Positions 28 to 42,877 are shown, numbered from the stretch's first letter. The stretch: 64,000 nucleotides of DNA from an uncultured Clostridia bacterium (GCA_944392175.1 CALXVT010000006.1:1077-65076), one strand, 5' to 3'. Program-made: numbers and translations. Notes: a model not told the origin generated them from the letters alone.

Positions 28-65
28 AAATAGGGATTAAGGGACGGTCCTTAAAATCCCTATTT
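28..65. repeat. REP-like palindromic element, TAGGGAT-arm subfamily
   Basis: AAATAGGGATTAAGGGACGGTCCTTAAAATCCCTATTT. Imperfect palindrome with core AGGGACGGTCCTT, shared with 9 other copies in the window. Confidence 0.85.
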
Positions 66-125
66 TTAAAAATATTAAAATAACTAATAAATTTTATGAT
101 TAAAGCCAAACTATTAATCAGTAAA

Positions 126-168
126 CATAAAATTTGAACTTTAAGGACCGTCCCTAAAGTTCAAAAAT
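126..168. repeat. REP-like palindromic element, TTGAACTT-arm subfamily
   Basis: CATAAAATTTGAACTTTAAGGACCGTCCCTAAAGTTCAAAAAT. Identical to the copy at 5683-5725; same core in the opposite orientation. Confidence 0.85.
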
Positions 169-179
169 CGTAAAAAGCC

Positions 180-208
180 TTGCAAATTCTGATAATAACA
201 GATATAAT
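180..208 (+). promoter_or_regulatory. Sigma-A-type promoter of the tyrS leader
   Basis: TTGCAA (180-185), 17-nt spacer, TATAAT (203-208). The -35 lies in the 3' flank of the repeat copy at 126-168. Confidence 0.55.
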
Positions 209-214
209 ATTAAT

Positions 215-433
215 ACAACTAAATTTAATTGCGTTTTAAAAAGAGACCGAGTAGTAATTTATAGTAACTAATAGAGAAGCAATGTTTGGTGGAAATTGCT
301 AGAATATAAATTTACGAATTACATTTCTTATAGTAATTAACGTGTAGCTACGATAAGCTTGAATGAGGCAATTATTAAATTGTAAATAAAGGTGGTACCA
401 CGACACGTCGTCCTTTAAGGAGACGTGTTTTTT
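215..433 (+). promoter_or_regulatory. T-box riboswitch leader (tyrosine specifier expected)
   Basis: AGAGA motifs and a GGTGGAA distal-loop-like sequence in the stem I region. TAC triplets at about 313-324. T-box sequence AAATAAAGGTGGTACCACG at 385-402. It overlaps a terminator (CACGTCGTCC / GGAGACGTG, 404-427) plus a T-run at 428-433. Lies upstream of tyrS. Confidence 0.8.
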
Positions 434-520
434 GATTTTGTTAGATTTTATGCGAAATAAATAAAATATACTATCGGTTCATATATTACATAGAAACCAT
501 AATTTTTAGGAGGTGATGCT

Positions 521-604
521 ATGACCCAATGGTTTAGAATGAAAACAATAATCCACGGGTTCTTCTACGAAAATTCATATAATATAATCAAAAATTTTAA
601 ATAG
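521..604 (+). CDS. Possible 27-aa small ORF between the T-box terminator and tyrS (MTQWFRMKTIIHGFFYENSYNIIKNFK)
   Basis: AGGAGG at 508-513, 7 nt before the ATG. No homology recognised. Codon choice (ACC, CAC, GGG, TTC, TAC) is atypical for this genome. Confidence 0.2.
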   Translation: MTQWFRMKTIIHGFFYENSYNIIKNFK

Positions 605-622
605 AATGGAGAGAGTATTAAT

Positions 623-1783
623 ATGGATGATAAATTAGATTTGATAAAAAGAAAAGCAGTAGATATTTTTTCAGAAGAGGAATTAGAACAAAAATTAAAA
701 AGTGGAAGAAAACTAACAATAAAACTTGGAGCAGATCCATCAAGACCGGATTTGCATTTAGGACATACAGTTGTTTTAAGGGCATTAAAAACATTTCAAG
801 AAATGGGACATGAAGTAGTATTTGTTATAGGTGATTTTACAGGAATGATTGGTGATCCATCAGGGAAAAGTAAAACAAGACCAGCGCTAACATTTGAACA
901 AACTAGAAAAGCAGGAGAAACATATTTTAATCAAGTAACAAAGATATTGGATAAAGATAAAACAAGAATTGCATATAATTCAGAATGGCTTTCCAAAATG
1001 AATTTTAAAGATATTATTGAATTAACAAGCAAATATACAGTTGCTAGAATTTTAGAAAGAGATGATTTTAAAAATAGATATGAAAACAATTTACCACTAT
1101 CTATGCATGAACTTTTATATCCTTTAATGCAAGGATATGACTCTGTAGCATTAAATGCAGATATAGAAATTGGTGGAACAGATCAAACTTTTAACCTTTT
1201 AGTAGGAAGAGAACTTCAAAAAGATTATGGTCAAGAAAGACAAGTTGTTTTAACATTTCCATTACTAGTCGGCTTAGATGGAAAAGAAAAAATGAGTAAA
1301 TCATTGGATAATTATATTGGAATTGATGAAAGTCCAGAAGTAATGTATGAAAAAGCGATGAAAATTCCAGATGAAGTTTTAATGGAATATTTTAGATTAA
1401 CAACAGATATAGACATCAAGATTGCAGAAGAATGGATAAAGGAAGATGTAGTAAAAGCTCATAAAAAATATGCAGAAGAAATCATAAAAATGTACCATGG
1501 CGAAGATAAAATTGCTATTGCAGAAGAAAGATATAATCAAGTAGCAAAAGGTGGTATACCAGAAGATATAAAAGAATTTAATATTGAAAATAATGATAAA
1601 ATAAATATTTGTGATTTACTTGTAAAAGTTGGATTTGCATCCTCTAAAAGTGAAGCTAAAAGAATGGTTATAGGTAAAGGTGTAAAAGTGAATGGTGAAA
1701 CTATAGAAGATATAGGTTGTACCATAGAACCAAAAGAAAAAATATTACAATTTGGAAAAAATAAATTTATAAAGATAATTTAA
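623..1783 (+). CDS. tyrS: Tyrosine--tRNA ligase
   Basis: HLGH (DLHLGHTV) and KMSKS class I signatures. C-terminal S4-like domain. Preceded by a T-box leader. Confidence 0.93.
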   Translation: MDDKLDLIKRKAVDIFSEEELEQKLKSGRKLTIKLGADPSRPDLHLGHTVVLRALKTFQEMGHEVVFVIGDFTGMIGDPSGKSKTRPALTFEQTRKAGETYFNQVTKILDKDKTRIAYNSEWLSKMNFKDIIELTSKYTVARILERDDFKNRYENNLPLSMHELLYPLMQGYDSVALNADIEIGGTDQTFNLLVGRELQKDYGQERQVVLTFPLLVGLDGKEKMSKSLDNYIGIDESPEVMYEKAMKIPDEVLMEYFRLTTDIDIKIAEEWIKEDVVKAHKKYAEEIIKMYHGEDKIAIAEERYNQVAKGGIPEDIKEFNIENNDKINICDLLVKVGFASSKSEAKRMVIGKGVKVNGETIEDIGCTIEPKEKILQFGKNKFIKII

Positions 1784-1787
1784 AGTT

Positions 1788-1822
1788 AAAGATGTCCTTT
1801 AGAGTAAGGGACATCTTTTAAC
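1788..1822 (+). terminator. Rho-independent terminator after tyrS
   Basis: AAAGATGTCC ... GGACATCTTT stem followed by a T-rich tract. Confidence 0.6.
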
Positions 1823-1918
1823 TTTCGGATATTTAAAATAGTTGCTTTTAGAAGTTAATTACAATATAATAACATAGTAGAAAAAAGGAATATCTCAAAA
1901 TTCCGAAAGGAGATAAAA

Positions 1919-3301
1919 ATGAATTTTTTAGAATTAAGAGAAAAATATCCAGAATTTTCATATAACTGGTATAAAATAGAAGAAAATGAAAATGAATATA
2001 AAATAACTTATGAATTTGAGATAGTAGGACTTTCAAAGTTTAATCCAACATGGACAATTCCAAAAATGAATATTAGCTTAGAAGAGAAGCCAAATTTAAA
2101 ATTGCTAGAAAATATGGTATTTAATTTAGGAATGGTAGAACTTGTAAGTTATTGGAAAATAACTTGTTCACCACATGTAACTGTAAAAAATATATATCTA
2201 AATCAAAAACAAATAAATTGGTGGAAAAAATTATATTTCTATGGTCTAGGGGAATTCTTTTATAAAAACAATATAAAAACAAATATAGAAGAATTTATGA
2301 ATATAACTTCAGGAATAACCAAGTTACAAAAATTTAGCACTAATGCGATAAATGATATAAAACAAGAATTTACAGGTGCATTAGTTCCAATTGGTGGAGG
2401 TAAAGACTCCATTGTTACATTAGATGTAATTAAAGATGATTTTAAGGATAACATGTGTTATGTAATAAATCCAAGAGGAGCAACAGAGGAAACTGCAGAA
2501 GTTGCTGGTTATGGTGAAGATAAAAGATGCTATGTAAAAAGGACATTGGACAAAAATATGTTGGAACTAAATAAACAAGGATATTTAAATGGACATACAC
2601 CATTTTCATCAATTGTAGCTTTTTCAGCACTTATAGTTGCATATTTAAACAAGAAAAAATACATAGTATTATCAAATGAAGCAAGTGCAAATGAATCTAC
2701 AATATATCAAGAAGAAGTAAATCATCAATATTCAAAAAGTTATGAATTTGAACAAGATTTTAATGAATATGTAAAAGAAAATATTTTAGAAGGAATAGAA
2801 TATTTTAGTTTACTAAGACCAATTAGTGAATATCAAATAGCAAAACATTTTGCAAAATTACCTGATTTTTATAAAATATTTAAAAGTTGTAATGTTGGAA
2901 GCAAAGAAAATAAATGGTGTGCAAATTGCCCAAAATGTTTATTTGTATATATAATTTTGTCTCCATTTATGAAAAAAGAAGATATGATAAATATATTTGG
3001 AGAAGATTTATTAGAAAAAGAAAGTTTAAAAGAAACAATGGAAATGCTTTCTGGAATACAAAAAAATAAACCTTTTGAATGTGTTGGATCCAGAGATGAA
3101 GTTAATACAGCAATTTGTGAAACAATAAAAAAATATGAAAATAATGATGAAGAATTACCATTATTATATAAATATTATAAAACTACCAAAAAATTTGAGG
3201 AATATAAAAATAAAGAAAATACATATGATACATTTTATAATGCAGAGAATAATGTTCCTATGCATTACAAAGAAATGTTAAAGAAGAGTGAGATAATATG
3301 A
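1919..3301 (+). CDS. PP-loop ATPase-like protein, candidate UDP-MurNAc-L-Ala-L-Glu epimerase (MurL-like)
   Basis: GGGKDS PP-loop-like motif. C-terminal Cys cluster CNVGSKENKWCANCPKC. Good RBS (GGAGA). Stop overlaps the start of the downstream MurD-family ligase (ATGA). Confidence 0.5.
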   Translation: MNFLELREKYPEFSYNWYKIEENENEYKITYEFEIVGLSKFNPTWTIPKMNISLEEKPNLKLLENMVFNLGMVELVSYWKITCSPHVTVKNIYLNQKQINWWKKLYFYGLGEFFYKNNIKTNIEEFMNITSGITKLQKFSTNAINDIKQEFTGALVPIGGGKDSIVTLDVIKDDFKDNMCYVINPRGATEETAEVAGYGEDKRCYVKRTLDKNMLELNKQGYLNGHTPFSSIVAFSALIVAYLNKKKYIVLSNEASANESTIYQEEVNHQYSKSYEFEQDFNEYVKENILEGIEYFSLLRPISEYQIAKHFAKLPDFYKIFKSCNVGSKENKWCANCPKCLFVYIILSPFMKKEDMINIFGEDLLEKESLKETMEMLSGIQKNKPFECVGSRDEVNTAICETIKKYENNDEELPLLYKYYKTTKKFEEYKNKENTYDTFYNAENNVPMHYKEMLKKSEII

Positions 3302-4614
3302 AAAATACAATACTAGACAAATTTAAACAAGATTTAGAAAATAAAAAAATAGCAATTTGGGGACTTGGTAAAGAAGGAATATCTACTTTACAATTTATAC
3401 AAAACAATAATATAAAATGCAAAGAATTAGCTATTTTAGAGAAAAAAGAATTTCAAGAAATAGAAGGTGCTAAAAAATTAAATGAAGTTGAGGATTTAAA
3501 TAAATATGACTTAATATTTAAAAGCCCAGGAATAGTTGCAGATGCATCTATAGTAAACGCAAATAAACTAACTTCACAGACAGAAGAATTTATAAAAATT
3601 TTATCTAAACAAATAATTGGAATAACTGGAACTAAAGGAAAAAGTACAACATCAAGTCTTACCTATACTATTTTAAAAAGATATTATCCAAACACTGTCT
3701 TAGTAGGAAATATTGGAATTCCATGTTTTAATGCTATAAATGAAATAGATGAAAACACAAAAATTGTATTTGAGCTTAGTTGTCATCAACTAGAATTTAT
3801 AAGATATTCACCACATATTGCAGTAATATTAGATTTATATCCAGATCACTTAGATCATTACAAAACTTTTGAAAATTATATTAAAGCAAAACTTAATATA
3901 AACAAATTTCAAAAAGATGATGATATATTTATTTATGGAGAAACCTGCAAAAAATATATTCACAGCAATATAAAAAATAATATCTGCATAAATGATTATA
4001 TAAAAGATAGAACTATAACAACAGAAAATAATAGTGTTCAAATTTTAGAAGATGAAACAAACTTAGTAGGAGAGCATAATTTCTTCGACATTGCAGTATC
4101 ATACTATATTTGCAATGAGATATATAATTTATCAAATAAAGAATTTAAAACAGTTCTAAAGGAATTTAAAGGCTTAGCGCATAGGCTAGAATATGTAACT
4201 ACAAAAGATGGAGTAAAATATTATGATGATTCAATTTCTACAATAGGAGAAACTACAATAGAGGGAGTAAAAGCATTAAAAGATGTAAATACCTTAATAT
4301 TAGGAGGAATGGATAGAAAAATAGATTACTCTAGTTTAGAAGATTTTATTATAGAAGAGAAAGAATTAGAAAATATAATTTTAATGCCAGACACTGGGAC
4401 AAGAATATATCGCGAACTACAAGAAAAAGGGAATACAAAAAAATGCTTTTTAGTAAATAATTTAGAAGAGGCTGTAGATAAAGCAAAAGAAGTAACAAAA
4501 AAAGGAACAAGTTGTTTACTATCACCAGCAGCAGCAAGCTATGGATTTTTTAAAAACTTTGAAGAACGCGGAAACATGTTCCAGAACTTGGTTTTAAGCG
4601 AAAATGAACTTTAG
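3298..4614 (+). CDS. MurD-family UDP-N-acetylmuramoyl-L-alanine--glutamate ligase (MurD2-like by context)
   Basis: N-terminal Rossmann GLGKEG. Mur ligase P-loop GITGTKGKSTT. C-terminal SPAAASYGFFKNFEERG, typical of MurD. Lies outside any dcw context and is coupled to the PP-loop gene. Confidence 0.75.
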   Translation: MKNTILDKFKQDLENKKIAIWGLGKEGISTLQFIQNNNIKCKELAILEKKEFQEIEGAKKLNEVEDLNKYDLIFKSPGIVADASIVNANKLTSQTEEFIKILSKQIIGITGTKGKSTTSSLTYTILKRYYPNTVLVGNIGIPCFNAINEIDENTKIVFELSCHQLEFIRYSPHIAVILDLYPDHLDHYKTFENYIKAKLNINKFQKDDDIFIYGETCKKYIHSNIKNNICINDYIKDRTITTENNSVQILEDETNLVGEHNFFDIAVSYYICNEIYNLSNKEFKTVLKEFKGLAHRLEYVTTKDGVKYYDDSISTIGETTIEGVKALKDVNTLILGGMDRKIDYSSLEDFIIEEKELENIILMPDTGTRIYRELQEKGNTKKCFLVNNLEEAVDKAKEVTKKGTSCLLSPAAASYGFFKNFEERGNMFQNLVLSENEL

Positions 4615-4637: not shown

Positions 4638-4854
4638 GTATACATAATGCATAAAAATGTTTATAGGCAATACCAAAACGTTAAAAAATATGTGGAATAA
4701 AGTATTTATTATTTAATAAGAAAAGTGGCTTTGCCACATGTACAGATTGCCTTGCAATTGCACAGGCATAGGTAACTTCGGCATTTTTGTATACTTAAAA
4801 AATTGGCGGTTTTCCTATACAAAAAATGTTCACAAAGAATTCACAAAAGCCAGA

Positions 4855-4900
4855 TTGACAAATGACACTGTGTCATATATAATATATGATACAGTGTCAT
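4855..4900 (+). promoter_or_regulatory. Promoter with two palindromic operators (TetR autoregulation candidate)
   Basis: TTGACA (4855-4860), 17 nt, TATAAT (4878-4883). Perfect palindrome ATGACACTGTGTCAT at 4862-4876 and near-copy ATGATACAGTGTCAT at 4886-4900. Confidence 0.65.
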
Positions 4901-5002
4901 TTTTGAAATAAAATTTGTAAAGCAAAATAAACAGAAAAGACACCAAATAAACTAATCAAAATTTTAGAATTATGAATATAATACAAATGAAAGGAGGAAA
5001 AA

Positions 5003-5611
5003 ATGCCAACCAATACATTCTTTAATTTGTCAGAGGAAAAGAAAAATAAGATTTTAAAAGCTGCAAATAAGGAATTTGCAAGAGTACCATTGGAACAAGC
5101 ATCAATAAAGAATATTGTTGAAGATGCTGAAATAGCAAGAGGAAGTTTTTATCAATATTTTGAAGACAAACAAGATTTATTTGAATATCTTATGACACTA
5201 AAAATTGGTAATATGCAAAAAAATTTATTCGATATGATAGAACGTGAAAATGGTAATATTATAAATATTTTTATTAATATATATGATCATTTAATACAAG
5301 TCGGCAAAGTGAGGAAAAATAACAAATTTTTTAGACAGATATTTGAAAATGTAAAAACAAGTGACAACTTAATGCTTATAAAAAAAGATGTAACAAAAAA
5401 CAAAATAGAACAAACATTATATGAATTGTACAGTAAAAACAAGGATATTTTAAATGTAAAAAACGAGGAAGAATTTAAATTAGTAATTGAAATGTTATTT
5501 GCAATTACTAGAAGAAGAATAGTTGCATCATTTAAATGTAATGATTTAGATGAAGCAAGAAAAGACTTTTTAAAGGAAATAGAATTTTTGAAAAATGGAA
5601 TTCAAAAATAA
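5003..5611 (+). CDS. TetR/AcrR family transcriptional regulator
   Basis: N-terminal HTH region (ASIKNIVEDAEIARGSFYQYFEDKQDLF) typical of TetR. About 200 aa. RBS AGGAGG. Confidence 0.85.
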   Translation: MPTNTFFNLSEEKKNKILKAANKEFARVPLEQASIKNIVEDAEIARGSFYQYFEDKQDLFEYLMTLKIGNMQKNLFDMIERENGNIINIFINIYDHLIQVGKVRKNNKFFRQIFENVKTSDNLMLIKKDVTKNKIEQTLYELYSKNKDILNVKNEEEFKLVIEMLFAITRRRIVASFKCNDLDEARKDFLKEIEFLKNGIQK

Positions 5612-5682
5612 ACATATTTAATAAATACTATTAATAATTAACTAAAAAATATATATTTTAGTTTAATTAAATTTATAGTATA

Positions 5683-5725
5683 CATAAAATTTGAACTTTA
5701 AGGACCGTCCCTAAAGTTCAAAAAT
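5683..5725. repeat. REP-like palindromic element, TTGAACTT-arm subfamily
   Basis: CATAAAATTTGAACTTTAAGGACCGTCCCTAAAGTTCAAAAAT. Identical to 126-168. Confidence 0.85.
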
Positions 5726-5748
5726 GTCGGAAAAGGAGAGAATAAGCA

Positions 5749-8214
5749 ATGTTAAAAGTATTAAAGAACTTAAAAGAATCTGCTATTTCTGTAATAGCCA
5801 TTGTTATACTTTTATGTGTTCAAGCTGCTACAGACTTAGCATTACCAACATATACTTCTAAAATTGTTAATATTGGTATTCAGCAAGGTGGTATAGAAAA
5901 TTCTGCACCAGAATACATAGCTAAAAATCAAATGGATAGTCTTTTAAAGTTCACAAATGATGACGAAAAAATACTTAATGACTATGAATTAATTTCTAAG
6001 GATAGCAAAAGTTATGACAAAGCTGTTAAAGATTATCCAGAAATCGCAAATCAAGAAGTATATAAATTAAAAGATATAAATGAAGAAGAACAAGACAGCT
6101 TAAATCAAGCTATAGCTAAACCTTTACTTGCACTTTCTTCATTGGAAGCTCCAGAAGAAGTTAGTAAAGATAATATGGATTTAATGTTAGAATTTACAGA
6201 AAATGATGATAATATATTAAATTCATATACATTATCAGAAGATGGAAATACATACAAGCTAAATGATATTAGCAATATAGAAAAAGGTAAATTAAATATT
6301 GATTTAATAAATGGACTACTTATAAATCGAATGGTATCAAATGAAGAAACTTCTAATAAAATAAAAGATTCTATGTTAGAAAATATTCCTGATGCACAAA
6401 AAGCAGTTATGGAAAATATGTCTTTAACTGAGATAATAAGTGCTATGCCAGAAGAACAAAAAGTAGAACTTATGAATACAATTGAATCAGAATTACCAAA
6501 TACAATTGATACTATGATTAATAATTTATCAGATTCTATGATAGAACAAGCAGCAATACAAGAAGTTAAATTACAATATCAATATTTAGGAGCAAATACT
6601 GATAATATTCAAAACAATTATATTTTTATTTCTGGATTGCAAATGTTAGGTATTGCCCTAATTACAATGATTTCAGCTGTAACAATAATGTTACTTTCAT
6701 CTAGAGTAGCTGCAAAATTAGGAAAAACATTAAGAGAAAAAGTATTCAAAAAAGTATTAAGCTTTTCTACAGAAGAATTTAATGGATTTTCTACAGCATC
6801 ATTAATTACACGTACAACAAATGATATACAACAAATACAAATGTTACTTACAATTTTATTTAGAGTAATTGTTTATGCTCCAATAATAGCAATAGGTGGA
6901 TTTATTAGAGTATTATTTAATAGTGATGCATCTATGGCTTGGATAATTGGTTTAGCAGTTGTTTGCATTATAATAATTGTTTTAACATTAATGATTGTAG
7001 CATTACCAAGATTTAAAATTTTACAAAAATTAGTAGATAAATTAAACCTAGTATCTCGTGAAATATTAACTGGAAGCCAAGTAATACGTGCATTTAATAC
7101 AGAAGAAAGAGAAGAGAATAGGTTTGATAAAGCTAATCTAGATTTGATGAAAACTCAAGTTTTTGTAAATAGAGCAATGACAATAATGATGCCGGCCCTA
7201 ATGTTTGTAATGAACTGTATAACAGTACTTATAGTTTGGGTTGGAGGACACAATGTAAATGATGGAATAATGCAAGTTGGAGATGTAATGGCATTTATTC
7301 AATATACAATGCAAATAGTAATGGCATTCTTAATGATTTCTATGGTATCTATAATGCTTCCAAGAGCTATTGTTTCTGCGGGTCGTATTAATGAAGTAAT
7401 AGATACAGAACCAAAAATTAAAGATAAAGATGAAACAAAACCATTTAAAGAAGACAAAAAAGGATATGTTGAATTTAAAGAGGTATCATTCCATTATCCA
7501 GATGCAGACACAGAAGTTGTATCTGATATAACATTTACTGCAAAACCTGGTGAAACTACAGCTTTAATTGGAAGTACTGGTAGTGGTAAATCTACAATAG
7601 TAAACTTAATTCCAAGATTTTATGATGTAACAGGTGGAGAATTACTTGTAGATGGAGTAAATATTAAAGATGCAAATCAAAAAGAATTAAGAAAAAGAAT
7701 TGGTTTCGTACCACAAAAAGGAGTATTATTCTCTGGAACAATAGAGTCTAACATAAAATATGGAGATGAAAATATTTCAGATGAAAAAATGGTAGAGGCT
7801 GCACAAATTGCACAAGCAGAAGAATTTATAGAAACTAAAAAAGATAAATACCAAGAACCAATAGCACAAGGTGGTGGAAACGTTTCTGGTGGACAAAAAC
7901 AACGTTTATCAATAGCAAGAGCTATTGCAATAGATCCAGAAATATTTGTATTTGATGATAGTTTTTCTGCATTAGACCTTAAAACTGATAAAATTTTAAG
8001 AGAAGAGCTTGCAAAACGTACAAAGGATAAGACTGTAATAATAGTTGCACAAAGAATTAGTACAATTATGAATGCAGATCAAATTATAGTATTAGATGAA
8101 GGTAAGATTGTAGGAAAAGGAACACATGAAGAATTAATGAAAACATGTGAAACTTATCAACAAATAGCTTTATCACAACTTTCAAAGGAGGAATTGGAAA
8201 ATGGCAGAGAATAA
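5749..8214 (+). CDS. ABC transporter permease/ATP-binding protein (type I exporter half) with a large extracytoplasmic insertion
   Basis: Walker A GSTGSGKST, signature VSGGQKQR, Walker B IFVFDD. TM1 is followed by about 260 hydrophilic residues before the remaining TM helices. Confidence 0.9.
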   Translation: MLKVLKNLKESAISVIAIVILLCVQAATDLALPTYTSKIVNIGIQQGGIENSAPEYIAKNQMDSLLKFTNDDEKILNDYELISKDSKSYDKAVKDYPEIANQEVYKLKDINEEEQDSLNQAIAKPLLALSSLEAPEEVSKDNMDLMLEFTENDDNILNSYTLSEDGNTYKLNDISNIEKGKLNIDLINGLLINRMVSNEETSNKIKDSMLENIPDAQKAVMENMSLTEIISAMPEEQKVELMNTIESELPNTIDTMINNLSDSMIEQAAIQEVKLQYQYLGANTDNIQNNYIFISGLQMLGIALITMISAVTIMLLSSRVAAKLGKTLREKVFKKVLSFSTEEFNGFSTASLITRTTNDIQQIQMLLTILFRVIVYAPIIAIGGFIRVLFNSDASMAWIIGLAVVCIIIIVLTLMIVALPRFKILQKLVDKLNLVSREILTGSQVIRAFNTEEREENRFDKANLDLMKTQVFVNRAMTIMMPALMFVMNCITVLIVWVGGHNVNDGIMQVGDVMAFIQYTMQIVMAFLMISMVSIMLPRAIVSAGRINEVIDTEPKIKDKDETKPFKEDKKGYVEFKEVSFHYPDADTEVVSDITFTAKPGETTALIGSTGSGKSTIVNLIPRFYDVTGGELLVDGVNIKDANQKELRKRIGFVPQKGVLFSGTIESNIKYGDENISDEKMVEAAQIAQAEEFIETKKDKYQEPIAQGGGNVSGGQKQRLSIARAIAIDPEIFVFDDSFSALDLKTDKILREELAKRTKDKTVIIVAQRISTIMNADQIIVLDEGKIVGKGTHEELMKTCETYQQIALSQLSKEELENGRE

Positions 8215-10054: not shown

Positions 10055-10126
10055 ATTTAGTGAAAGTGGAATAATTAATTTTGTTAGAAAACTAAACAAA
10101 ACATTAAGCAATAGCAAAATCAAAAA

Positions 10127-10154
10127 AAGAATAGGACGATTCCTATTCTTTTTT
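10127..10154 (+). terminator. Rho-independent terminator
   Basis: AAGAATAGGA cgat TCCTATTCTT followed by TTTT. Confidence 0.8.
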
Positions 10155-11322: not shown

Positions 11323-11368
11323 CCAACATGTTTGTTAGGTATGATTGGGTAAAACCAATTAAAAGAAA

Positions 11369-11399
11369 AAGAAGCTGGCAGAAATGCCAGCTTCTTTCA
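11369..11399 (+). terminator. Rho-independent terminator
   Basis: AAGAAGCTGGCA gaaa TGCCAGCTTCTT. Confidence 0.7.
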
Positions 11400-11401
11400 T
11401 A

Positions 11402-11439
11402 CAAATAGGGATTTTAGGTCTGTCCCTAAATTCCTATTG
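11402..11439. repeat. REP-like palindromic element, TAGGGAT-arm subfamily (diverged)
   Basis: CAAATAGGGATTTTAGGTCTGTCCCTAAATTCCTATTG. Confidence 0.7.
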
Positions 11440-13590: not shown

Positions 13591-14358
13591 ATGAAAAAGA
13601 AACAAATAATAATAAATACAGAAAATTTAGATGAGATGTACAAATTGTATAAAAAATATAAAAGAATTATATATAAAAATACAGAATTTATATATGAAGG
13701 CAAAAATGAAGATGTAAAAAAAATAGTGGATGTTTTAAATAAAAAAACAAGAATGCAGAGATTAGCATATATATTTGATAAATCATGTGAAGAGGTAGAT
13801 AAAAAATTTGAAGGTAAAAATATATGTGGATTTGATTGTAATCAATGTATAGTTCAAAGAAAAGATAAAACAAAAGAGATAAATGGATGTTGCAGATTAT
13901 GTAGGTTTCAAGGGGATAATGGTTGTAAGTCAAAAAACTTAACTTGTAAATTATTTTTCTGTGATGAGATAAAACAAAAATATGATGTAATAGAATTAAA
14001 AGATTTAAAACTAGTAAAATTGCTTACAAGAAGGCAAAGATTAATGTTAAAGTTTGATTTATTTTCTTCCAGAGAAGAAGTAATTATGGATTTATATATA
14101 GGTTTTGCAACAATAGCAGCATTTAGAGAAATATGCACTTTAATTAAAAACTCAATATTTCTAATGTTTAGAAATAAATACGAGAGAAAAGCTAATAATT
14201 TTAAAATAAAAAATATAGTTTTTTTAGCAACAATATTTTTACTTCTATTTTTTGCAATAATTCATCCAATAATGCCATTAGTTATAATTGGAATAGGCTT
14301 AATAGAAGATCTTTTAATAAAATTGAACTTTAGGGACGGTCCTAAAAGTTCAAAATAG
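13591..14358 (+). CDS. Cys-rich protein (CxxC ... GCCxxC, YkgJ-like zinc/iron-chelating pattern) with a C-terminal membrane segment
   Basis: CGFDCNQCIV ... INGCCRLCRF ... CKLFFCDE. Hydrophobic C-terminal segments. The last 12 codons and the TAG stop lie within the repeat copy at 14319-14356. Confidence 0.45.
   Translation: MKKKQIIINTENLDEMYKLYKKYKRIIYKNTEFIYEGKNEDVKKIVDVLNKKTRMQRLAYIFDKSCEEVDKKFEGKNICGFDCNQCIVQRKDKTKEINGCCRLCRFQGDNGCKSKNLTCKLFFCDEIKQKYDVIELKDLKLVKLLTRRQRLMLKFDLFSSREEVIMDLYIGFATIAAFREICTLIKNSIFLMFRNKYERKANNFKIKNIVFLATIFLLLFFAIIHPIMPLVIIGIGLIEDLLIKLNFRDGPKSSK
14319..14356. repeat. REP-like palindromic element, TTGAACTT-arm subfamily
   Basis: AAAATTGAACTTTAGGGACGGTCCTAAAAGTTCAAAAT. 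Confidence 0.85.
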
Positions 14359-15659: not shown

Positions 15660-15664
15660 GTGGA

Positions 15665-15707
15665 CATAAAATTTGAACTTTAGGGACGGAGCTTAAAGTT
15701 CAAAAAT
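15665..15707. repeat. REP-like palindromic element, TTGAACTT-arm subfamily
   Basis: CATAAAATTTGAACTTTAGGGACGGAGCTTAAAGTTCAAAAAT. Confidence 0.85.
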
Positions 15708-15744
15708 TGCGGGAAGGCTTTGTAATTTAGTGATAGGAGGAAAA

Positions 15745-16683
15745 ATGAAAGTATTAGTATTTACTCATAAAAGTGATATAGATGGAATGGGAGGAGCGAT
15801 TCTTTCCAAATTAGCATTTGAAAATGTGGATTATGTATTATGTGAAACGTTTACTTTGCAAGAAGAGTTAAAAAAATATTTTGATGATAAAAAAATATAT
15901 GATTATGATATGATATTTGTTACTGACTTATGGCTTGAAGAGCCTACATTAACCAAAGTGGCTGAAGATGAAAAATTAAAAAATAAGTTTTTTGTATTTG
16001 ATCATCACAAATCTGCAATAGAAGAGAATTTTAATAAATATGATTTTACGACAATAAAAATTTCGAATGAAAAAGGTCGTTGTTCTGGAACTAGTTTATT
16101 CTATGAATATTTAATTTCTAATAATTATCTAAAAAATATAAAAGCAATAGAAGATTTTGTAGAACTTACAAGAAGATATGATACTTGGGAATGGAAGAAT
16201 ATATATAATGATGAAAAAGCCCATGAATTAACATTATTTTTTGATGTTTTAGGTTGCTCTGGTTATATAACTACAATTTTCGACAAATTAAAAAATATTA
16301 ATCAAGATGCTAATTTTGAATTTAATAATATTGAGCAAATGATTATTAATAATAAAAAAGCCCAAGTTGAAGAAAAAATAAAAAATTATATTAAAAAAAT
16401 TTATTACAAAGATATTTTAGGATATAAAGCTGGAATAATTTTTATAGATTACGAATATAGAAATGATATCGCAGAATACATAAGACATATGCAAATAGAT
16501 ATTGATTTTGTAATGCTTATAGCACTTGATTATGGGACTATTTCATATAGAAAAATTAAAGAAGGAATGAATGTTAGAAAAATTGCTGAAAAATTTGGTG
16601 GAAAGGGACATGATGGAGCTGCTAGTAGTCCAATTTCTTTAGGTAAAAAAGATAAGCTAATTGATATTTTAACAAATGTTTAA
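15745..16683 (+). CDS. DHH family phosphoesterase
   Basis: THKSDIDGMGG, FDHHKS (DHH motif) and GGKGHDGAAS (DHHA1 GGGH-like). RBS AGGAGG before the ATG at 15745. Confidence 0.75.
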   Translation: MKVLVFTHKSDIDGMGGAILSKLAFENVDYVLCETFTLQEELKKYFDDKKIYDYDMIFVTDLWLEEPTLTKVAEDEKLKNKFFVFDHHKSAIEENFNKYDFTTIKISNEKGRCSGTSLFYEYLISNNYLKNIKAIEDFVELTRRYDTWEWKNIYNDEKAHELTLFFDVLGCSGYITTIFDKLKNINQDANFEFNNIEQMIINNKKAQVEEKIKNYIKKIYYKDILGYKAGIIFIDYEYRNDIAEYIRHMQIDIDFVMLIALDYGTISYRKIKEGMNVRKIAEKFGGKGHDGAASSPISLGKKDKLIDILTNV

Positions 16684-19280: not shown

Positions 19281-19316
19281 AAATAGGGATTTAGGGACGT
19301 TCCTAAAATCACTATT
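19281..19316. repeat. REP-like palindromic element, TAGGGAT-arm subfamily (diverged)
   Basis: AAATAGGGATTTAGGGACGTTCCTAAAATCACTATT. Confidence 0.75.
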
Positions 19317-19326
19317 AAAAAGAAAA

Positions 19327-19357
19327 AATGCACCGGTGTGAACACCGATGCATTTTC
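19327..19357. terminator. Bidirectional rho-independent terminator
   Basis: ATGCACCGGTG tgaa CACCGATGCAT, flanked by an A-run and a T-run, between convergent genes. Confidence 0.7.
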
Positions 19358-19360
19358 TGT

Positions 19361-19780: not shown

Positions 19781-19962
19781 TAAAATGAGTATTCAGAGTA
19801 TGTGTAGCTTGTAAAATCTACATTATTATAGTATAAATATAAAAGAAATTATTTTATAATAACAATATTGACTAACCAAACTGTCTAATACATACAATAA
19901 TCTAACAATTTTTTGAAATAGAAATTATAAGAACCGTATCTAAATGCTTATAGGAGGATAAA

Positions 19963-20490
19963 ATGAATATTTTAATATTAACTGGAAGTCCAAGAAAAAA
20001 TGGAACTTCAAATTTATTATTAGAGAATTTTTTAAATGGATTAAATAAAGAAAAACACAACATAAAAAGATATGATGCAGCATTTTTAAAAATAAGTGGT
20101 TGTAGCGGATGCTATGCTTGTGAAGATGGAGAATGCATAAAGAATGACGATATGAAACAAATATATGAAGATTTATTAACTGCTGATTTAATAGTATTTG
20201 TAAGTCCAATTTATTATTACAATTTTACTTCTCAACTAAAAACTGTAATTGATAGATTTTATGCAATAGATGAAAAGTTACATACAAAAAAAGATGTAAT
20301 TTTACTTTCTACAGCTTGGAATGACAGAGAAATTGTTGTAAAACCAATACAAGCAGAATTAGAAGCTATTTGTAGCTATTTTGGATGGAATATTAAAGGA
20401 AAAGTTTTTGCTATAGGTTGTGGCGAACCAGAAGATATAATAAAAACAAAATATCTAGAAGATGCTTTTAACCTAGGAAAAGAAATTTAA
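19963..20490 (+). CDS. Flavodoxin-like fold NAD(P)H-dependent FMN reductase / iron-sulfur flavoprotein-like
   Basis: MNILILTGSPRKNGTS N-terminus. CSGCYACEDGEC cluster. Confidence 0.7.
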   Translation: MNILILTGSPRKNGTSNLLLENFLNGLNKEKHNIKRYDAAFLKISGCSGCYACEDGECIKNDDMKQIYEDLLTADLIVFVSPIYYYNFTSQLKTVIDRFYAIDEKLHTKKDVILLSTAWNDREIVVKPIQAELEAICSYFGWNIKGKVFAIGCGEPEDIIKTKYLEDAFNLGKEI

Positions 20491-27033: not shown

Positions 27034-27801
27034 ATGGAAAAAGTATTAGAAGTTAGGAACATAGAAAAATACTATGGGAATAAATCAAACTTAACAAAAG
27101 CAATTGATAATATAAGTTTTGATATACAAAAAGGTGAGTTTGTAGGAATTATGGGAGCTTCTGGCTCAGGAAAAACTACACTTTTAAATTGTATATCTAC
27201 AATAGATAGAGTAACAGCAGGAAAGATAGTTATAAATAATCAAGATATAACTAAACTAAAAGGTAATAAATTAAATAAATTTAGAAGAGAAGAATTAGGA
27301 TTTATATTTCAAGATTTTAATTTATTAGACACATTAACAGCATATGAAAATATAGCTTTAGCACTTACAATACAAAGAGTAAAGCCAAAAGAAATAGAAA
27401 AGAGAGTGCAGGAAATAGCGAAAAAATTAGAAATTACAGATATTTTAAATAAATATCCATACCAAATTTCTGGAGGACAAAAGCAAAGAGTTGCATCAAG
27501 TAGAGCAATAATAACAAAGCCTAAATTAGTTTTAGCAGATGAACCAACAGGAGCACTAGATAGTAAATCTGCAAGACAATTATTAGAAAGTTTTGAAGAC
27601 TTAAATAAAAAATTAAATGCAACGATTTTGATGGTTACGCACGATTCATTTACCGCAAGCTATGCAAATAGAATTTTATTTATAAAAGACGGAAAAATCT
27701 TTAATGAACTTATAAAAGGAGATAGTTCAAGAAAAGAATTTTTTGAAAAAATAATTGAAGTTCAAACTCTATTAGGAGGTGAACTTGGAGATGTTATTTA
27801 A
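27034..27801 (+). CDS. ABC transporter ATP-binding protein (BceA-like)
   Basis: Walker A GASGSGKTT, signature SGGQKQR, Walker B LVLADEPTG. Confidence 0.9.
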   Translation: MEKVLEVRNIEKYYGNKSNLTKAIDNISFDIQKGEFVGIMGASGSGKTTLLNCISTIDRVTAGKIVINNQDITKLKGNKLNKFRREELGFIFQDFNLLDTLTAYENIALALTIQRVKPKEIEKRVQEIAKKLEITDILNKYPYQISGGQKQRVASSRAIITKPKLVLADEPTGALDSKSARQLLESFEDLNKKLNATILMVTHDSFTASYANRILFIKDGKIFNELIKGDSSRKEFFEKIIEVQTLLGGELGDVI

Positions 27802-29857
27802 ATTATCATTTAAAAACATGAAAAAAACTATTAAAGATTTTGCAATCTACTTTTTAACATTAGCACTAGGTGTTGCTATCTTTTATATGTTTAATTCATT
27901 AGATAGTCAGCAAGCAATGCTGCAAGTATCAAATTCTACAAGAGAGTTAATAAAACTAATGATAACAATGCTTGGTTTTGTATCTGTTTTTGTAGCGATT
28001 ATTTTAGGACTTTTAATTGTATATGCAAATAATTTCTTAATAAACAGAAGAAAAAGAGAATTTGGAACATATATGTTACTTGGAATGAGTAAAGGGCAAA
28101 TCTCTAGGATATTATTAATGGAAACAATTTTAGTTGGAATAATTTCATTAATTGTAGGATTAATTGCTGGTATATTTGCGTCACAATTTATGTCAATATT
28201 AGTAGGAAAATTATTTGCAGCAGATATGAGTAAATTTGAATTTGTATTTTCAAAAGATGCTTGCATAAAGACATGTATTTATTTTGCAGTAATGTATATT
28301 GCAGTAATGATATTTAATACATTTACAATTTCAAGATATAAATTAATAAATTTATTAAATGCATCAAAAAAGAATGAAAAAATTAAAATAAAAAATCTTT
28401 GGGTATGTATACTAGTTTTTATTATAGGTGCAGTAATGCTTGGATATGCATATTACAAAGTAACAGGTGGAATTTCAGAATTATCAACAGAAGAAAAAAT
28501 GTTACCAGTTATATTAATGGGAATTATAAGTACAATATTAATCTTTTGGTCAGTATCAGGATTTATTCTTAAAATTGTACAATTAAGAATAAATATTTAC
28601 TTAAAAGATGTTAATATGTTTGTTTTAAGACAATTACACAATAAAATAAATACGACTGTTGTAAGTATGTCTGTAATTTGTTTAATGCTATTTATGACAA
28701 TAACAATATTATCATCAGCATTGTCATTAAATAGTACAATGAGAAGAGATTTAGAAGAAATGACACCTGTAGATTTGAATTTGTACAAAACAGCTAATTT
28801 ACCAGAAAATAAAAAAATGTCAAAAGCTCAAATAGAAGATTCAAGAAAAACAATGGTTCAAACATTAGAAGAAAATGGTTTTGATATGAATAATCTTAAA
28901 GATGTAGTAGAAATTCCAATTTATGCGACAAATAAGTTAACATGGAAAGATACATTAAGCCCGGTATATGATGAAGTGAAAAAACAATTTCCAAATCTTT
29001 TATATGAAACAGCAGAAGAATTAGTTAAGGTATCTGATTATAATAAAATTGCAAGATTATATGGAACTACAGAATATAACTTAAATGATGATGAATATGT
29101 AATTTTATGCGATTTTGATAATATGGAAAATCTTAGAAATCAAGCTTTAAAGGTAGATAGCAGGATAAATATAGCTGGCAAGGAATATAAATCAAAATAT
29201 GACGAGTGCCAAGAAGGATATTTAGAAATGGCAGCTAGTCATATAAATACAGGAATAATATTAGTTCCAGATAATTGTGACTTAACAGAAGATATGAAAG
29301 AAGAAACATTTTTAGCTGCAAATTATAATGCAGATACAGAGGAAGAAAAAGAAGAAATAGAAAAAATTTTTACCGATGAAATGAATTCAGAATTAAATAA
29401 AAATTTAGAAGAAAAAGAAATTACAATAGATGGTATGACAAAAATATCTATTATAGAATCTAGTTTAGGTATTTCAACAATTGTATTATTTATGGCAATA
29501 TATTTAGGAATAATATTCTTAATTGCAAGTTCTGCAATATTAGCATTAAAGCAATTAACAGAAAGCTCTGATAATAAACAAAGATATACAATTTTAAGAA
29601 AAATTGGAGCAGATGAAAAAATGATAAATGGAGCATTATTTAAACAAATAGGAATATTTTTCTTAATGCCATTAATATTAGCAATTATTCATTCTATATT
29701 TGGAATACAATTTGTTTTGAGTATGATGAGTGTACTTGCAGATGCAAAGGAATTATTACCATCAGTTATAGCAACTGCAATAGTAATTGGTGTAATTTAT
29801 GGAGCATATTTTATGGCAACATACCTAGGAAGTAAAAATATTATTAAAGAAGAATAG
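27779..29857 (+). CDS. FtsX-family ABC transporter permease (BceB-like, 10-TM type with a large extracellular domain)
   Basis: 692 aa: TM clusters, a central hydrophilic domain of about 230 aa, then a second FtsX-like TM cluster. The TAG stop lies within the repeat copy at 29853-29889. Confidence 0.85.
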   Translation: MNLEMLFKLSFKNMKKTIKDFAIYFLTLALGVAIFYMFNSLDSQQAMLQVSNSTRELIKLMITMLGFVSVFVAIILGLLIVYANNFLINRRKREFGTYMLLGMSKGQISRILLMETILVGIISLIVGLIAGIFASQFMSILVGKLFAADMSKFEFVFSKDACIKTCIYFAVMYIAVMIFNTFTISRYKLINLLNASKKNEKIKIKNLWVCILVFIIGAVMLGYAYYKVTGGISELSTEEKMLPVILMGIISTILIFWSVSGFILKIVQLRINIYLKDVNMFVLRQLHNKINTTVVSMSVICLMLFMTITILSSALSLNSTMRRDLEEMTPVDLNLYKTANLPENKKMSKAQIEDSRKTMVQTLEENGFDMNNLKDVVEIPIYATNKLTWKDTLSPVYDEVKKQFPNLLYETAEELVKVSDYNKIARLYGTTEYNLNDDEYVILCDFDNMENLRNQALKVDSRINIAGKEYKSKYDECQEGYLEMAASHINTGIILVPDNCDLTEDMKEETFLAANYNADTEEEKEEIEKIFTDEMNSELNKNLEEKEITIDGMTKISIIESSLGISTIVLFMAIYLGIIFLIASSAILALKQLTESSDNKQRYTILRKIGADEKMINGALFKQIGIFFLMPLILAIIHSIFGIQFVLSMMSVLADAKELLPSVIATAIVIGVIYGAYFMATYLGSKNIIKEE

Positions 29858-29889
29858 GGATGAGAGGACAGTCCTTAAAATCCCTATTT
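29853..29889. repeat. REP-like palindromic element, TAGGGAT-arm subfamily
   Basis: AATAGGGATGAGAGGACAGTCCTTAAAATCCCTATTT. Confidence 0.8.
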
Positions 29890-35539: not shown

Positions 35540-35547
35540 GAGTTTGT

Positions 35548-40291: not shown

Positions 40292-40356
40292 ACCTTACCA
40301 CAAATTTCCATACAATTAAATTAAATTATATGCTAATATAATTTTAAGGTGATTGT

Positions 40357-41557: not shown

Positions 41558-41610
41558 AAAAAAATAAGTAATATAATAAAATATAGTAAATAATTTTTTA
41601 GGAGGAAAAA

Positions 41611-41853
41611 ATGAACCAAAAAAGTTTAGAAATAGCAAGTAAAGTTTTAAATATGTCAGAGGAAATTCTTAAAGAAAATTATAAAATTCTAGAAGATGAT
41701 AATGCTATATTATTTTGGGAACCTTGTCGTGGTGGACGTAACATTATAGTAGCAGAAGATGGGTCTTATTTAGTTGGAATATCTGCTGTAGATCCTAGTA
41801 TACTTTTAGATCAATTTAGAAATGGTAGTAGGACAGACAGTAACAAACAATAG
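41611..41853 (+). CDS. Hypothetical protein
   Basis: 80-aa ORF with an AGGAGG RBS. Confidence 0.5.
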   Translation: MNQKSLEIASKVLNMSEEILKENYKILEDDNAILFWEPCRGGRNIIVAEDGSYLVGISAVDPSILLDQFRNGSRTDSNKQ

Positions 41854-41870
41854 ATAAAATTTCAAAGGAA

Positions 41871-41899
41871 GTAATTGATAATTACTTCCTTTAGTGTTA
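41871..41899 (+). terminator. Rho-independent terminator
   Basis: AAAGGAAGTAATT gat AATTACTTCCTTT. Confidence 0.75.
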
Positions 41900-41930
41900 T
41901 CATATAGAAAGTTAATAATTAGGAGAAAAT

Positions 41931-42527
41931 ATGGAAAATACATTTATAGATAAATTAGAAAAAGAAGAAGAATTAAATAATGAAATAATAGAAGAAATTT
42001 CTGAAAAAAATTTGGATATTTATAAAAAAGATATAAATAATTGCAAATTTATACATACAGAAATATTAGATAGTAATTTTGAGAAGGTATATTTTAAAAA
42101 TGTTATTTTTGATAATTGTAATTTCTCCAATACTACATTTACAGAATGTAGTTTCATAAATTGTAAATTCAAAAACTGCAAAATGATTGGTTCAAATTTT
42201 ATAGAAAATATATTCATAGATGTGGAAATAAAAGATTCTAATTTAAACTATGTAAATATATCAAATACAAGTTTTAACAATGTTAGTATAAAAGATACAA
42301 CATTAATAAATTCATATATGCAAGATACAAATTTAAAAAATACAAAATTTAATAATATAGATTTTACAAAATCTCAAATATTTAAAACAAGATTAAAAGA
42401 TATAGATTTATCAAATTCTAAAATAGAAGGATTATCAACTACTTTAGAAGATATAAAAGGAGCTAAAGTCACAGAATTTCAAGTTATGGATTTAGCATAT
42501 TTATTAGGTGTAAAAATAAAAATTTAG
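41931..42527 (+). CDS. Pentapeptide repeat protein
   Basis: Long run of A(D/N)LxX-type pentads (NFSNTTFTECSFINCKFKNCKMIGSNF ...). Confidence 0.85.
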   Translation: MENTFIDKLEKEEELNNEIIEEISEKNLDIYKKDINNCKFIHTEILDSNFEKVYFKNVIFDNCNFSNTTFTECSFINCKFKNCKMIGSNFIENIFIDVEIKDSNLNYVNISNTSFNNVSIKDTTLINSYMQDTNLKNTKFNNIDFTKSQIFKTRLKDIDLSNSKIEGLSTTLEDIKGAKVTEFQVMDLAYLLGVKIKI

Positions 42528-42539
42528 GGAGGAATAAAA

Positions 42540-42821
42540 ATGATTAAACATGTTGTAATGTGGAAATTTAAAGAAAATACAGAAAAAGAGATGGATGAAT
42601 TCCTAGAGGGATTAAAAAGCTTAGAAAATCAAATACCAGAAATAAAAAGTATGCAGGTTGGAAAAAACATAGATAATGATGAATATGATGCAATATTAAT
42701 TTCAGAATTTGAATCTGTAGAAGATATGAATAAATATAAAACAGATCCAAGACATGTTAAAGTCTCAAACATGTGTAAAGAAATAAGAACAAAAAGAACT
42801 GCATTTGATTTTGAAGAATAG
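42540..42821 (+). CDS. Dabb family stress-responsive alpha/beta-barrel protein
   Basis: MIKHVVMWKFKE N-terminus ... HVKV. 93 aa. Confidence 0.75.
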   Translation: MIKHVVMWKFKENTEKEMDEFLEGLKSLENQIPEIKSMQVGKNIDNDEYDAILISEFESVEDMNKYKTDPRHVKVSNMCKEIRTKRTAFDFEE

Positions 42822-42842
42822 GCTTTTAGTCTATTCTTTTTT

Positions 42843-42877
42843 TAGAGATTTGGGGACGGTCTTAAAATCCCTATCTA
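42843..42877. repeat. REP-like palindromic element, TAGGGAT-arm subfamily (diverged)
   Basis: TAGAGATTTGGGGACGGTCTTAAAATCCCTATCTA. Confidence 0.7.

Follow-up and report, generated by a model that had tools for sequence, protein, structure and literature searches.

A dispersed family of REP-like hairpin repeats and its probable RAYT partner in low-GC gut Bacillota

Repetitive extragenic palindromic (REP) sequences and their REP-associated tyrosine transposases (RAYTs) have, to our knowledge, been studied almost entirely in Proteobacteria, and we know of no convincing repeat partner for the large group of RAYTs that bear a helix-turn-helix (HTH) domain. The subject of this report is a family of short palindromic repeats in 64,000 nucleotides (nt) of DNA from an uncultured Clostridia bacterium (GCA_944392175.1 CALXVT010000006.1:1077-65076), a stretch referred to at its full length as the window. 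The published survey of REPs has no Firmicutes (PMC3733652), and only group 1 RAYTs have been noted in Clostridia (PMC5581495); an abundant REP family of low-GC Bacillota is described in neither. TIRtrons, whose transposases are the TIRYTs, were described by Di Nocera et al. 2013; some of their terminal inverted repeats (TIRs) are self-complementary and form moderately abundant dispersed families, as with S. maltophilia ORF1152 (PMC3733652). Quentin et al. equate TIRYTs with TnpA_REP subclass 2.1 and RAYT group 1, and report no REP-like structures beside subclass 2.1 genes (PMC6006769). Bertels et al. found the 16-mers flanking group 1 genes in low abundance, with only about 12 occurrences (PMC5581495). 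The window elements are very likely the dispersed hairpin repeats, REP-like or of the self-complementary TIR kind, of a REP-RAYT system in a clade of low-GC gut Bacillota. The system, which appears TIRtron-like, is an undescribed repeat family within a known kind of selfish or domesticated DNA and not a new kind of system. Its main interest would be that, among low-GC gut Bacillota, it is the first REP-like family to be both well populated and accompanied by its RAYT.

The base composition of the window is 25.9% GC. Against this background the 13-nt core AGGGACGGTCCTT was matched seven times with up to two mismatches, compared to 0.10 matches expected, an excess of about 70-fold, and none of 100 shuffles reached seven. 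When up to three mismatches were allowed, the core recovered one decayed copy (core at 19929-19941) and all ten copies that an earlier sequence-only reading had listed and had described as sharing the core or a variant of it with one to three mismatches. All ten were found at the coordinates listed there, and copies are named here by the first positions given in that reading. The claims that 126-168 and 5683-5725 are identical over 43 nt, that the arms fall into two classes and that every copy lies at a gene boundary were likewise borne out, and the two arm classes, GGGAT/ATCCC and GAACT/AGTTC, are also the main two in other genomes. The same reading had described the family as confined to the accessory half of the window. 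No convincing copy was indeed found between 43 and 64 kb, even at up to three mismatches, but the significance of this absence is weak; intergenic space is smaller there, and the lack of copies is a mild effect (P about 0.02-0.05 given the intergenic space) with no sharp boundary. Three further perfect copies are present within 2.2 kb upstream of window base 1 in L204, a sequence that matches the window at 100% identity over 7,783 nt and belongs to the same contig, so that the contig has 13 copies in about 69 kb.

The repeat unit is a near-perfect palindrome of 33-45 nt. It consists of a conserved inner stem and apex, TTT-AGGGAC-G-GTCCTT-AAA, and an outer stem of either GGGAT/ATCCC or GAACT/AGTTC, the latter class having in addition an unpaired ACATAA tag on one side. 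Seven copies, folded as single-stranded DNA, form hairpins of 15-17 bp (z = -4.2 to -7.1). Folding was weaker for copies 19281 (z = -3.9) and 29853 (z = -3.3), and the two most degenerate copies, 11402 (z = -2.0) and 42843 (z = -0.2), were not conspicuous, with 42843 folding no better than shuffles. The family therefore has the form by which REPs are recognized, a short (20-45 nt), imperfect extragenic palindrome in many copies. Most GAACT-arm copies of the window are perfect and most of its GGGAT-arm copies degenerate, which fits the GAACT class as the currently active one. The first base pair outside GGGA/TCCC covaries (A-T or C-G) and is paired in 91% of cases, compared to a shuffle maximum of 81%. 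Arms that compensate freely were considered and rejected, as pairing beyond this first outer pair was at chance level and a few fixed arm classes were found instead. Insertion of the core into pre-existing target palindromes was also rejected, as empty GGGAT or GAACT arms were found neither in the window nor in the related sequences L114, L195 and L196; for a hairpin in L195 that seemingly has no core, GC-to-AT decay, as at site 19929, is the better reading. Resemblances to dif/Xer, LexA (GAAC-N4-GTTC), Rex and Noc sites were considered and did not fit in spacing and sequence.

The spread of the family was determined by an exact 16-mer scan (AGGGACGGTCCTTAAA) of one genome per species, which returned at least 113 stretches. 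Of those listed, 84 are below 34% GC, and nearly all of the 84 are from metagenome-assembled genomes (MAGs) of the gut of chicken, human and other hosts. The carriers are gut Bacillota of low GC (25-30%) and amount to at least 28 species-level genomes, labelled uncultured Clostridia, Clostridium sp. (including CAG:354, UMGS1531 and HGM13681) or Candidatus Caccenecus. Single MAGs contributed dozens of tiles among the matches listed, and the background density is about one copy per 4 kb. Orthologous proteins of the carrier genomes are about 50-99% identical, and the core is thus common to genomes well beyond the species level. Other genomes have the same two arm classes, rarer arms, and direct or inverted doublets like BIMEs (bacterial interspersed mosaic elements) and REPINs, in which the 3' half of a core can pair with the 5' half of the core that follows to form an alternative hairpin. 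No match was found in 2.9 million viral contigs, which indicates that the element is not phage-borne. No copy was present in about 138 kb of other low-GC contigs that encode homologues of the window's ABC transporter at 59-66% identity (90% in one case). Searches of the window and eight doublet loci against Rfam, at gathering and E-value thresholds, gave only spurious sub-threshold miRNA-type hairpins, and a suspected identity of the doublets with the TwoAYGGAY motif was not supported by the Rfam scan of doublet-bearing loci. A full-text literature search with the core sequence returned only unrelated eukaryotic and viral primers.

A partner transposase was identified in related genomes by listing open reading frames (ORFs) bracketed by two copies. 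In L098 an ORF of 255 amino acids (aa) is located between two inverted GAACT-class copies. The ORF scored 39.9 bits towards Pfam Y1_Tnp (cut-off 23), and its best NCBIfam match was REP-associated tyrosine transposase (62.2 bits, E = 4.8e-17). The predicted enzyme has an HUH motif (NHAHFLV), a class-2 tyrosine motif Y---NP (YIHNNP) and an HTH-like C-terminal tail at residues 229-254 (Sigma70_r4 23.0 bits, cut-off 24.1; HTH_19 21.3 bits). An AlphaFold model with a pLDDT (predicted local distance difference test score) of 86.2 contained a confident helical C-terminal domain. The top Foldseek match of the model was 4ER8, E. coli TnpA_REP bound to a REP hairpin (E = 3.5e-6, template modelling score 0.69), and the next matches were ISDra2 and IS608 TnpA. 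In predicted structure and in catalytic motifs the L098 enzyme is accordingly of the TnpA_REP type. By its features it would resemble the HTH-bearing TIRYT class.

The enzyme has 2,311 homologues at E <= 1e-10. Genomic context was read for L098 and nine homologues with 84, 68, 65, 59, 56, 55, 50, 50 and 49% identity. Core-bearing inverted hairpins, single or in doublets, were present on both sides of the gene in L098 and in eight of the nine homologues, and the 49% homologue was flanked by diverged hairpins (GTGAAATTTAGGGACGCTTGAAAAATTTCAC). Given the background of about one per 4 kb, chance cannot account for the presence of copies less than 250 nt from the gene on either side in every lineage. 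The cores flanking the gene are lineage-specific (GGTCC/GGAGC, GGACC, GTTCC, AGTCC/ACTCC), and so are the arms (GAACTTT, GCAATTT, GCACAAA). In lineages at 50-84% identity the neighbours of the gene are kept, a glycosyltransferase upstream and QueH or PolA downstream, and the RAYT gene has thus probably been inherited in place and is not hopping. Vertical inheritance at a fixed chromosomal position has been reported for RAYTs (PMC5581495). The sequence-only reading had proposed a REP/MITE-like (miniature inverted-repeat transposable element) mobile or protein-recognised element, and had pointed to a RAYT-like gene of IS200/IS605 type flanked by copies as the partner to look for. Such a gene is present in ten related lineages, the most distant with diverged hairpins, and the flanking, the 4ER8-like fold and the turnover described below all support that proposal. 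Nearly all RAYT homologues examined also share a motif in the 5' untranslated region, GTGGGGGCAAAAATTAAT, about 20-40 nt upstream of the RAYT start and just 5' of the Shine-Dalgarno (SD) sequence (L098 4985-5005; L207-L227). The motif reads TTGGGGGCAAATTT in the 49% homologue, is weaker in P0043 and is lacking in P0056, and it may be a regulatory element for the transposase.

The two flanks of the RAYT gene differ in layout. The upstream (left, LE) flank consists of ATGAACTTT, the core in + orientation, AAAGTTCAT, 7-8 nt and ACATAA, and the downstream (right, RE) flank of ACATAAAAT, TTGAACTTT, the core in - orientation and AAAGTTCAAAAA. The same layouts are found among the dispersed copies: in the window, copy 4601 is of LE layout and copies 126 and 5683 are of RE layout, with the tag included in each, and copies 15665 and 14319 have RE-type flanks with a flipped core. 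The LE and RE types cover most GAACT-class copies of other genomes. Of 16 co-directional cases, 13 have the ACATAA tag on the coding strand, which is no more than suggestive of a strand bias. In one doublet (L048) an LE and an RE unit are fused via a single ACATAA, much like a REPIN or an internally deleted element. A rare core variant, GGAGC, appears to link window copies to the RAYT flanks of P0008 and P0014.

Related strains and species were compared for presence or absence of copies, as the sequence-only reading had proposed, and copies were found to be present, absent, decayed from GC to AT, or replaced by an ordinary hairpin. L114 represents a sister species (about 86-91% nucleotide identity) and L194-L206 are conspecific strains; the species is present in human-gut samples (ONAT22-1 / ERZ16268xxx). 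At the site of copy 28, L114 has a GGGAT-class copy (core at 3694) with unalignable flanks beside a rearranged gene module, and its orthology with copy 28 is uncertain. Copy 126 is missing at the same site in L114. An extra copy of 38 nt is present in L114 at about window position 1890, where the window has none; L195 has a decayed copy there, which points to loss in the window's lineage. Copy 4601 is kept in L114, L194, L196 and L197, and its place is taken in L195 by an ordinary unrelated hairpin (GAGCAAAGA..TCTTTGCTC). The orthologue of copy 5683 has the GGAGC core variant in L114, and in L195 it has kept its arms around an A/T core (CTTTAGAAAAAAATTCTAAAG). The decayed window copy at 19912-19958 is represented in L195 by an intact GGGAT-arm copy (ATAGGGATTTTAGGACCGTCCCCGAATCCCT). 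Among conspecific strains the core of copy 11402 is polymorphic at three positions within nearly identical flanks, and that of copy 14319 is GGTCC in some strains and GGAGC in others. The GGAGC variant of copy 15665 is also found in L114 and in RAYT flanks (L207 LE, L212 RE). Recurrence of the double change from GGTCC to GGAGC at orthologous sites suggests conversion between copies. Individual copies are not strongly conserved and are subject to decay towards A/T and to deletion. Since the consensus is nevertheless common across genera, continuing renewal is required.

Two observations on rearrangement were made in the same comparison. A module consisting of a GAACT-type copy, a 144-aa DUF2383 gene and a GGGAT-type copy is inverted between L204 (3242-3869) and L114 (3117-3694), which suggests recombination between repeats; in the window's genome the module sits between inverted GAACT copies. 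In L114 an IS200-type TnpA gene (5376-6159; 154 aa, HUH) is inserted in the tyrS terminator loop, at about window position 1800, and its end hairpins (CCCCCAGCTAGGCTGGGGG) are unrelated to the hairpin family.

The family agrees with the REP/REPIN-RAYT systems of Proteobacteria (E. coli TnpA_REP, 4ER8; Pseudomonas REPINs) in several respects. The repeats are short, multi-copy extragenic palindromes located mostly after genes, and they occur as singletons and as direct or inverted doublets. The class-2 Y1 HUH gene is at a conserved position with inverted flanking copies, the repeat variant is specific to the transposase lineage, and 4ER8 is the nearest fold predicted. Unlike in those systems, the inner stem and apex are conserved and the outer stem is variable, the hosts are low-GC Bacillota, and the enzyme has an HTH-like C-terminal tail. 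The unpaired GTAG tag is also absent, CGTC is found only within the paired core AAGGACCGTCCCT, and GAACT-class copies carry ACATAA instead. Membership in the GTAG- or CGTC-tagged REP superfamilies, which have an unpaired tetranucleotide, was therefore rejected (PMC3733652).

A likeness to TIRtrons would lie in a RAYT-like gene with a putative HTH-type C-terminal extension and in flanking inverted repeats with a GGGGWSAS-like motif. The motif is here [A/G]GGGACGG, which fits at 6-7 of 8 positions, and the variant GGGGACAG fits at 8 of 8 (L002, L221). Unlike the flanks of TIRtrons, the flanks described here take the form of compact hairpins, which are abundant throughout the genome as well (13 copies in about 69 kb of the window's contig). 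A distant RAYT-like paralogue (35% identity) in L105 (2030-3060) has classical TIRs of 37 nt (CCAATTGGGGACGTTTCTTT.TGAGACATTTTTATGT). These TIRs carry GGGGACGT and have GGGGAC and an end, ACATAAAAA, in common with the hairpin family, and the paralogue would appear to bridge the two descriptions. The ends of IS200/IS605 insertion sequences (ISs) and PATEs (palindrome-associated transposable elements) are comparable in that subterminal hairpins serve a Y1 HUH enzyme and that left and right ends are distinct. A short motif in direct orientation at both ends is likewise common to both, and there may be a similar strand bias, the tag being on the coding strand in 13 of 16 cases. The differences are that the transposase gene described here appears to stay put, as seen from its conserved synteny, and that the copies are single hairpins of about 40 nt and not full ends; the true IS200 hairpins of L114 are unrelated.

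By analogy to E. coli TnpA_REP and IS200/IS605 TnpA, the Y1 HUH enzyme, encoded at its fixed and conserved position, would bind the hairpin in single-stranded DNA at the replication fork, and would cut and rejoin near the hairpin, thereby seeding new copies. The seeded copies would then decay by GC-to-AT mutation and deletion, and some could be co-opted as stop codons, terminator substitutes or intercistronic mRNA hairpins. Binding, cleavage and mobilisation by the RAYT are inferred by analogy. Several points weigh against a REP-RAYT system. We know of no experiment in which any RAYT was seen to transpose REPs in vivo. The NCBIfam RAYT score of 62.2 is below the equivalog cut-off of 80, and a profile of 26 homologues matched 4ER8 TnpA_REP only marginally in sequence (E = 0.1). 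The window itself encodes no RAYT, and the link to this organism is made by the related genomes and the common GGAGC variant; a RAYT is presumed from these to be present in the window's own genome. None of the examined RAYTs is flanked by GGGAT-arm copies, and mobilisation of these copies by the same or a paralogous enzyme is assumed. No new insertion could be polarised with an outgroup, and loss of copies could account for every difference observed. A target-site signature was not seen, nor was a target-site duplication at the cleanest presence/absence site. Finally, the GTAG and CGTC tags of the described REP superfamilies are missing (PMC3733652).

Among the other explanations, intrinsic and possibly bidirectional terminators kept alike by selection, with an incidental adjacency to the transposase, were considered in view of the placement of the copies. 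About 40% of the copies are within 20 nt of an upstream stop codon. The observed distribution was 111 co-directional, 15 convergent and 4 divergent, compared to 106, 8.8 and 15 expected from intergenic length; convergent regions are thus enriched in copies and divergent regions depleted. The copies resemble terminators in having a GC-containing stem in AT-rich DNA at gene ends, and a few have A/T runs, with an A-run and a T-run flanking copies 28 and 4601. The ordinary hairpin that occupies the place of copy 4601 in L195 also suggests functional equivalence. Unlike terminators, most copies lack a U-run after the GC-containing stem when read on the sense strand, which is that of the upstream gene, and the conserved apex exceeds what termination needs. 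A consensus terminator scan of 1-20 kb called no copy on the sense strand, and copies 126 and 5683 were called only on the strand antisense to every neighbouring gene. Copies 11402, 19281 and 42843 directly adjoin canonical terminators. For about a quarter of the copies the next start codon is 20-37 nt away and its ribosome-binding site abuts the copy; an efficient terminator at such a place would silence the downstream gene. In 86 low-GC sequences (85 loci and the window) the core was in the same orientation as the gene in 36 cases and in the opposite orientation in 28, and its orientation is thus independent of gene direction. Terminator selection would moreover not account for copies that decay while their flanks stay conserved, for an apex of 13-19 nt that is invariant across genera, or for RAYT flanking in ten lineages. 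The rejection of a plain bidirectional terminator in the sequence-only reading was therefore supported, and a terminator origin is considered improbable. The placement of the copies relative to genes is the one described for REPs (PMC3733652).

A function at the RNA level was also considered, in which transcript selection maintains the copies at operon junctions because their hairpins stabilise the mRNA or direct its processing, for instance by shielding it from RNase J or PNPase or by serving as RNase III sites. Many copies are intercistronic and abut an SD, and must therefore be transcribed, and the core is asymmetric in a G.U-compatible way that favours one of its strands as RNA. Of 16 tagged copies, 13 have the same orientation as the genes, and such secondary roles are known for REPs (PMC3733652). 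The near-random orientation of the core relative to transcription does not fit with this function, nor does the decay or disappearance of copies among close strains without anything taking their place. Rfam has no such family, and the association with the RAYT would be left unexplained. As an origin of the family this explanation is likewise improbable, and a role in RNA could be a secondary co-option of some copies.

The copies could further be MITEs or solo terminal repeats of a conventional autonomous IS, in which transposase and flanks move as a unit and leave miniatures behind. This would agree with a transposase gene bounded by inverted repeats, with the L048 doublet and its resemblance to an internally deleted element, and with the many RAYT homologues found on contigs of about 1 kb, as would be expected of repeats that break assemblies. 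A moving unit is improbable, given that the RAYT has the same neighbours across lineages at 50-84% identity. No target-site duplications were seen, and the enzyme is an HUH protein of the RAYT class and not a DDE transposase. Clustering of ORFs in 8-kb tiles detected no recurrent transposase family beside the copies in 84 loci, a tblastn search with the IS200 TnpA of L114 gave no match in the neighbourhood of copies, and the end hairpins of that IS200 element are different. Double-stranded operator sites for a dimeric palindrome-binding regulator, suggested by a near-perfect palindrome with a conserved centre and by intergenic copies near promoters such as that of tyrS, are very improbable, since the outer arms swap with compensating changes that keep pairing rather than sequence (GGGAT/ATCCC versus GAACT/AGTTC; A-T versus C-G), and since most copies follow genes, few are found in divergent promoter regions and some overlap stop codons.

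Within a REP-RAYT system, the retained LE and RE identities and the directly oriented ACATAA would imply an IS200/IS605-like, strand-specific handling of single ends. In the window a TetR gene (5003-5611) is located between the LE-type copy 4601 and the RE-type copy 5683, the same arrangement as that of the RAYT gene. The stop codon of the upstream gene is inside the LE copy, and the SD of the downstream gene directly follows the RE copy. The L195 allele of TetR has only 77% identity, and neither of the two flanking copies is intact in that strain, where they are missing or decayed. TetR may be a cargo bracketed by transposase ends, or the arrangement may be a coincidence. A wider proposal can be made only tentatively and is, with all its parts taken together, rather unlikely. 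It would combine a first clear case of an HTH-bearing, TIRYT-like RAYT driving abundant genome-wide hairpins, in a reduced gut Bacillota genome of 26% GC, with strand-specific single-end handling and with bracketing of cargo by LE and RE copies.

The family spans many uncultured gut species, and its constant apex with enzyme-linked shifts in arms and core offers a series for the study of co-evolution between enzyme and hairpin. The lineage series is also useful for choosing oligonucleotides for biochemistry. In practical terms the repeats probably break MAG assemblies and are easily misannotated as terminators or small RNAs. They also affect gene calling, as genes take stop codons and C-terminal residues from them. 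In 16 cases across genomes the stop codon is the TAG of TTTAGGG, and window copy 4601 shows the same arrangement. In the window the stop codon of the upstream ORF is inside or overlapped by copies 4601, 14319 and 29853; the TAG at 4612-4614 ends a Mur-ligase-like gene (3298-4614) and the TAG at 29855-29857 an FtsX-like gene (27779-29857). The window copies are listed in Table 1.

Table 1. Hairpin repeat copies of the window, with position, strand and setting.
Feature	Position	Strand	Remarks
GGGAT-arm copy, perfect core (AGGGACGGTCCTT on +)	28..65	+	upstream of tyrS leader; -10.7 kcal/mol, z = -5.05
GAACT-arm copy, RE type: ACATAAAAT tag, TTGAACTTT, core (AAGGACCGTCCCT on +), AAAGTTCAAAAA	124..168	+	layout of RAYT downstream flank
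GAACT-arm copy, LE type: ATGAACTTT, core(+), AAAGTTCAT, 7 nt, ACATAA	4601..4658	+	z = -7.13
GAACT-arm copy, RE type, same 43 nt as copy 126	5681..5725	+	between TetR gene and SD of ABC transporter gene 5749-8214
GGGAT-arm copy, degenerate core (AGGGACAGACCTA on -)	11402..11439	-	directly after canonical terminator 11367-11398; z = -1.99
GAACT-arm copy, RE-like flank, core reading + (AGGGACGGTCCTA)	14319..14356	+	ORF 13591-14358 runs through copy
GAACT-arm copy, RE-type flank ACATAAAAT, flipped core with GGAGC variant AGGGACGGAGCTT	15663..15707	+	just 5' of SD of DHH gene 15730-16683
GGGAT-arm copy, degenerate core AGGGACGTTCCTA	19281..19316	+	beside bidirectional terminator 19323-19358 between convergent genes; z = -3.87
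Decayed copy absent from the earlier list (AGATACGGTTCTT on -)	19912..19958	-	immediately 5' of SD of gene 19963-20490
GGGAT-arm copy, degenerate core GAGGACAGTCCTT	29853..29889	+	z = -3.32
Most degenerate GGGAT-type copy GGGGACGGTCTTA, left arm AGAGAT	42843..42877	+	directly after canonical terminator; z = -0.22

An ordinary terminator, AAAAAAGAATAGGAATCGTCCTATTCTTTTTT, is found at 10123-10154. Its centre, AGGAATCGTCCT, is loosely core-like with 4 mismatches, and it is outside the family. Near the start of the window, copy 126 had been thought to supply the -35 element of the tyrS leader promoter. This was found not to be so. The promoter is TTGCAA-17-TATAAT at 180-208 and is conserved in L114; its TTGCAA (180-185) is outside the repeat unit, and conservation of this hexamer in L114, which has no copy there, shows that the repeat is not its source. 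The T-box leader of tyrS (235-418) scored 92.3 bits, just under the Rfam gathering score of 93, and is therefore missed by a default Rfam scan. A second repeat of about 112 nt and higher GC is located at 4715-4826. It is also present in L196, L197, L204 and L205 and missing from the same site in L114, L194 and L195; copies with 77-84% similarity were found in the MAGs L010, L072 and L113, and no match in Rfam. On the minus strand it has a terminator-like end (GTGGCAAAGCCAC followed by a T-run), and it may represent a small RNA gene or a further mobile element. At 4855-4907 a perfect TTGACA-17-TATAAT promoter overlaps a palindrome of 26 nt (TTGACAAATGACACTGTGTCATATAT / ATATATGATACAGTGTCATTTTTGAA) that L114 and all strains have kept and that probably serves as operator for TetR.

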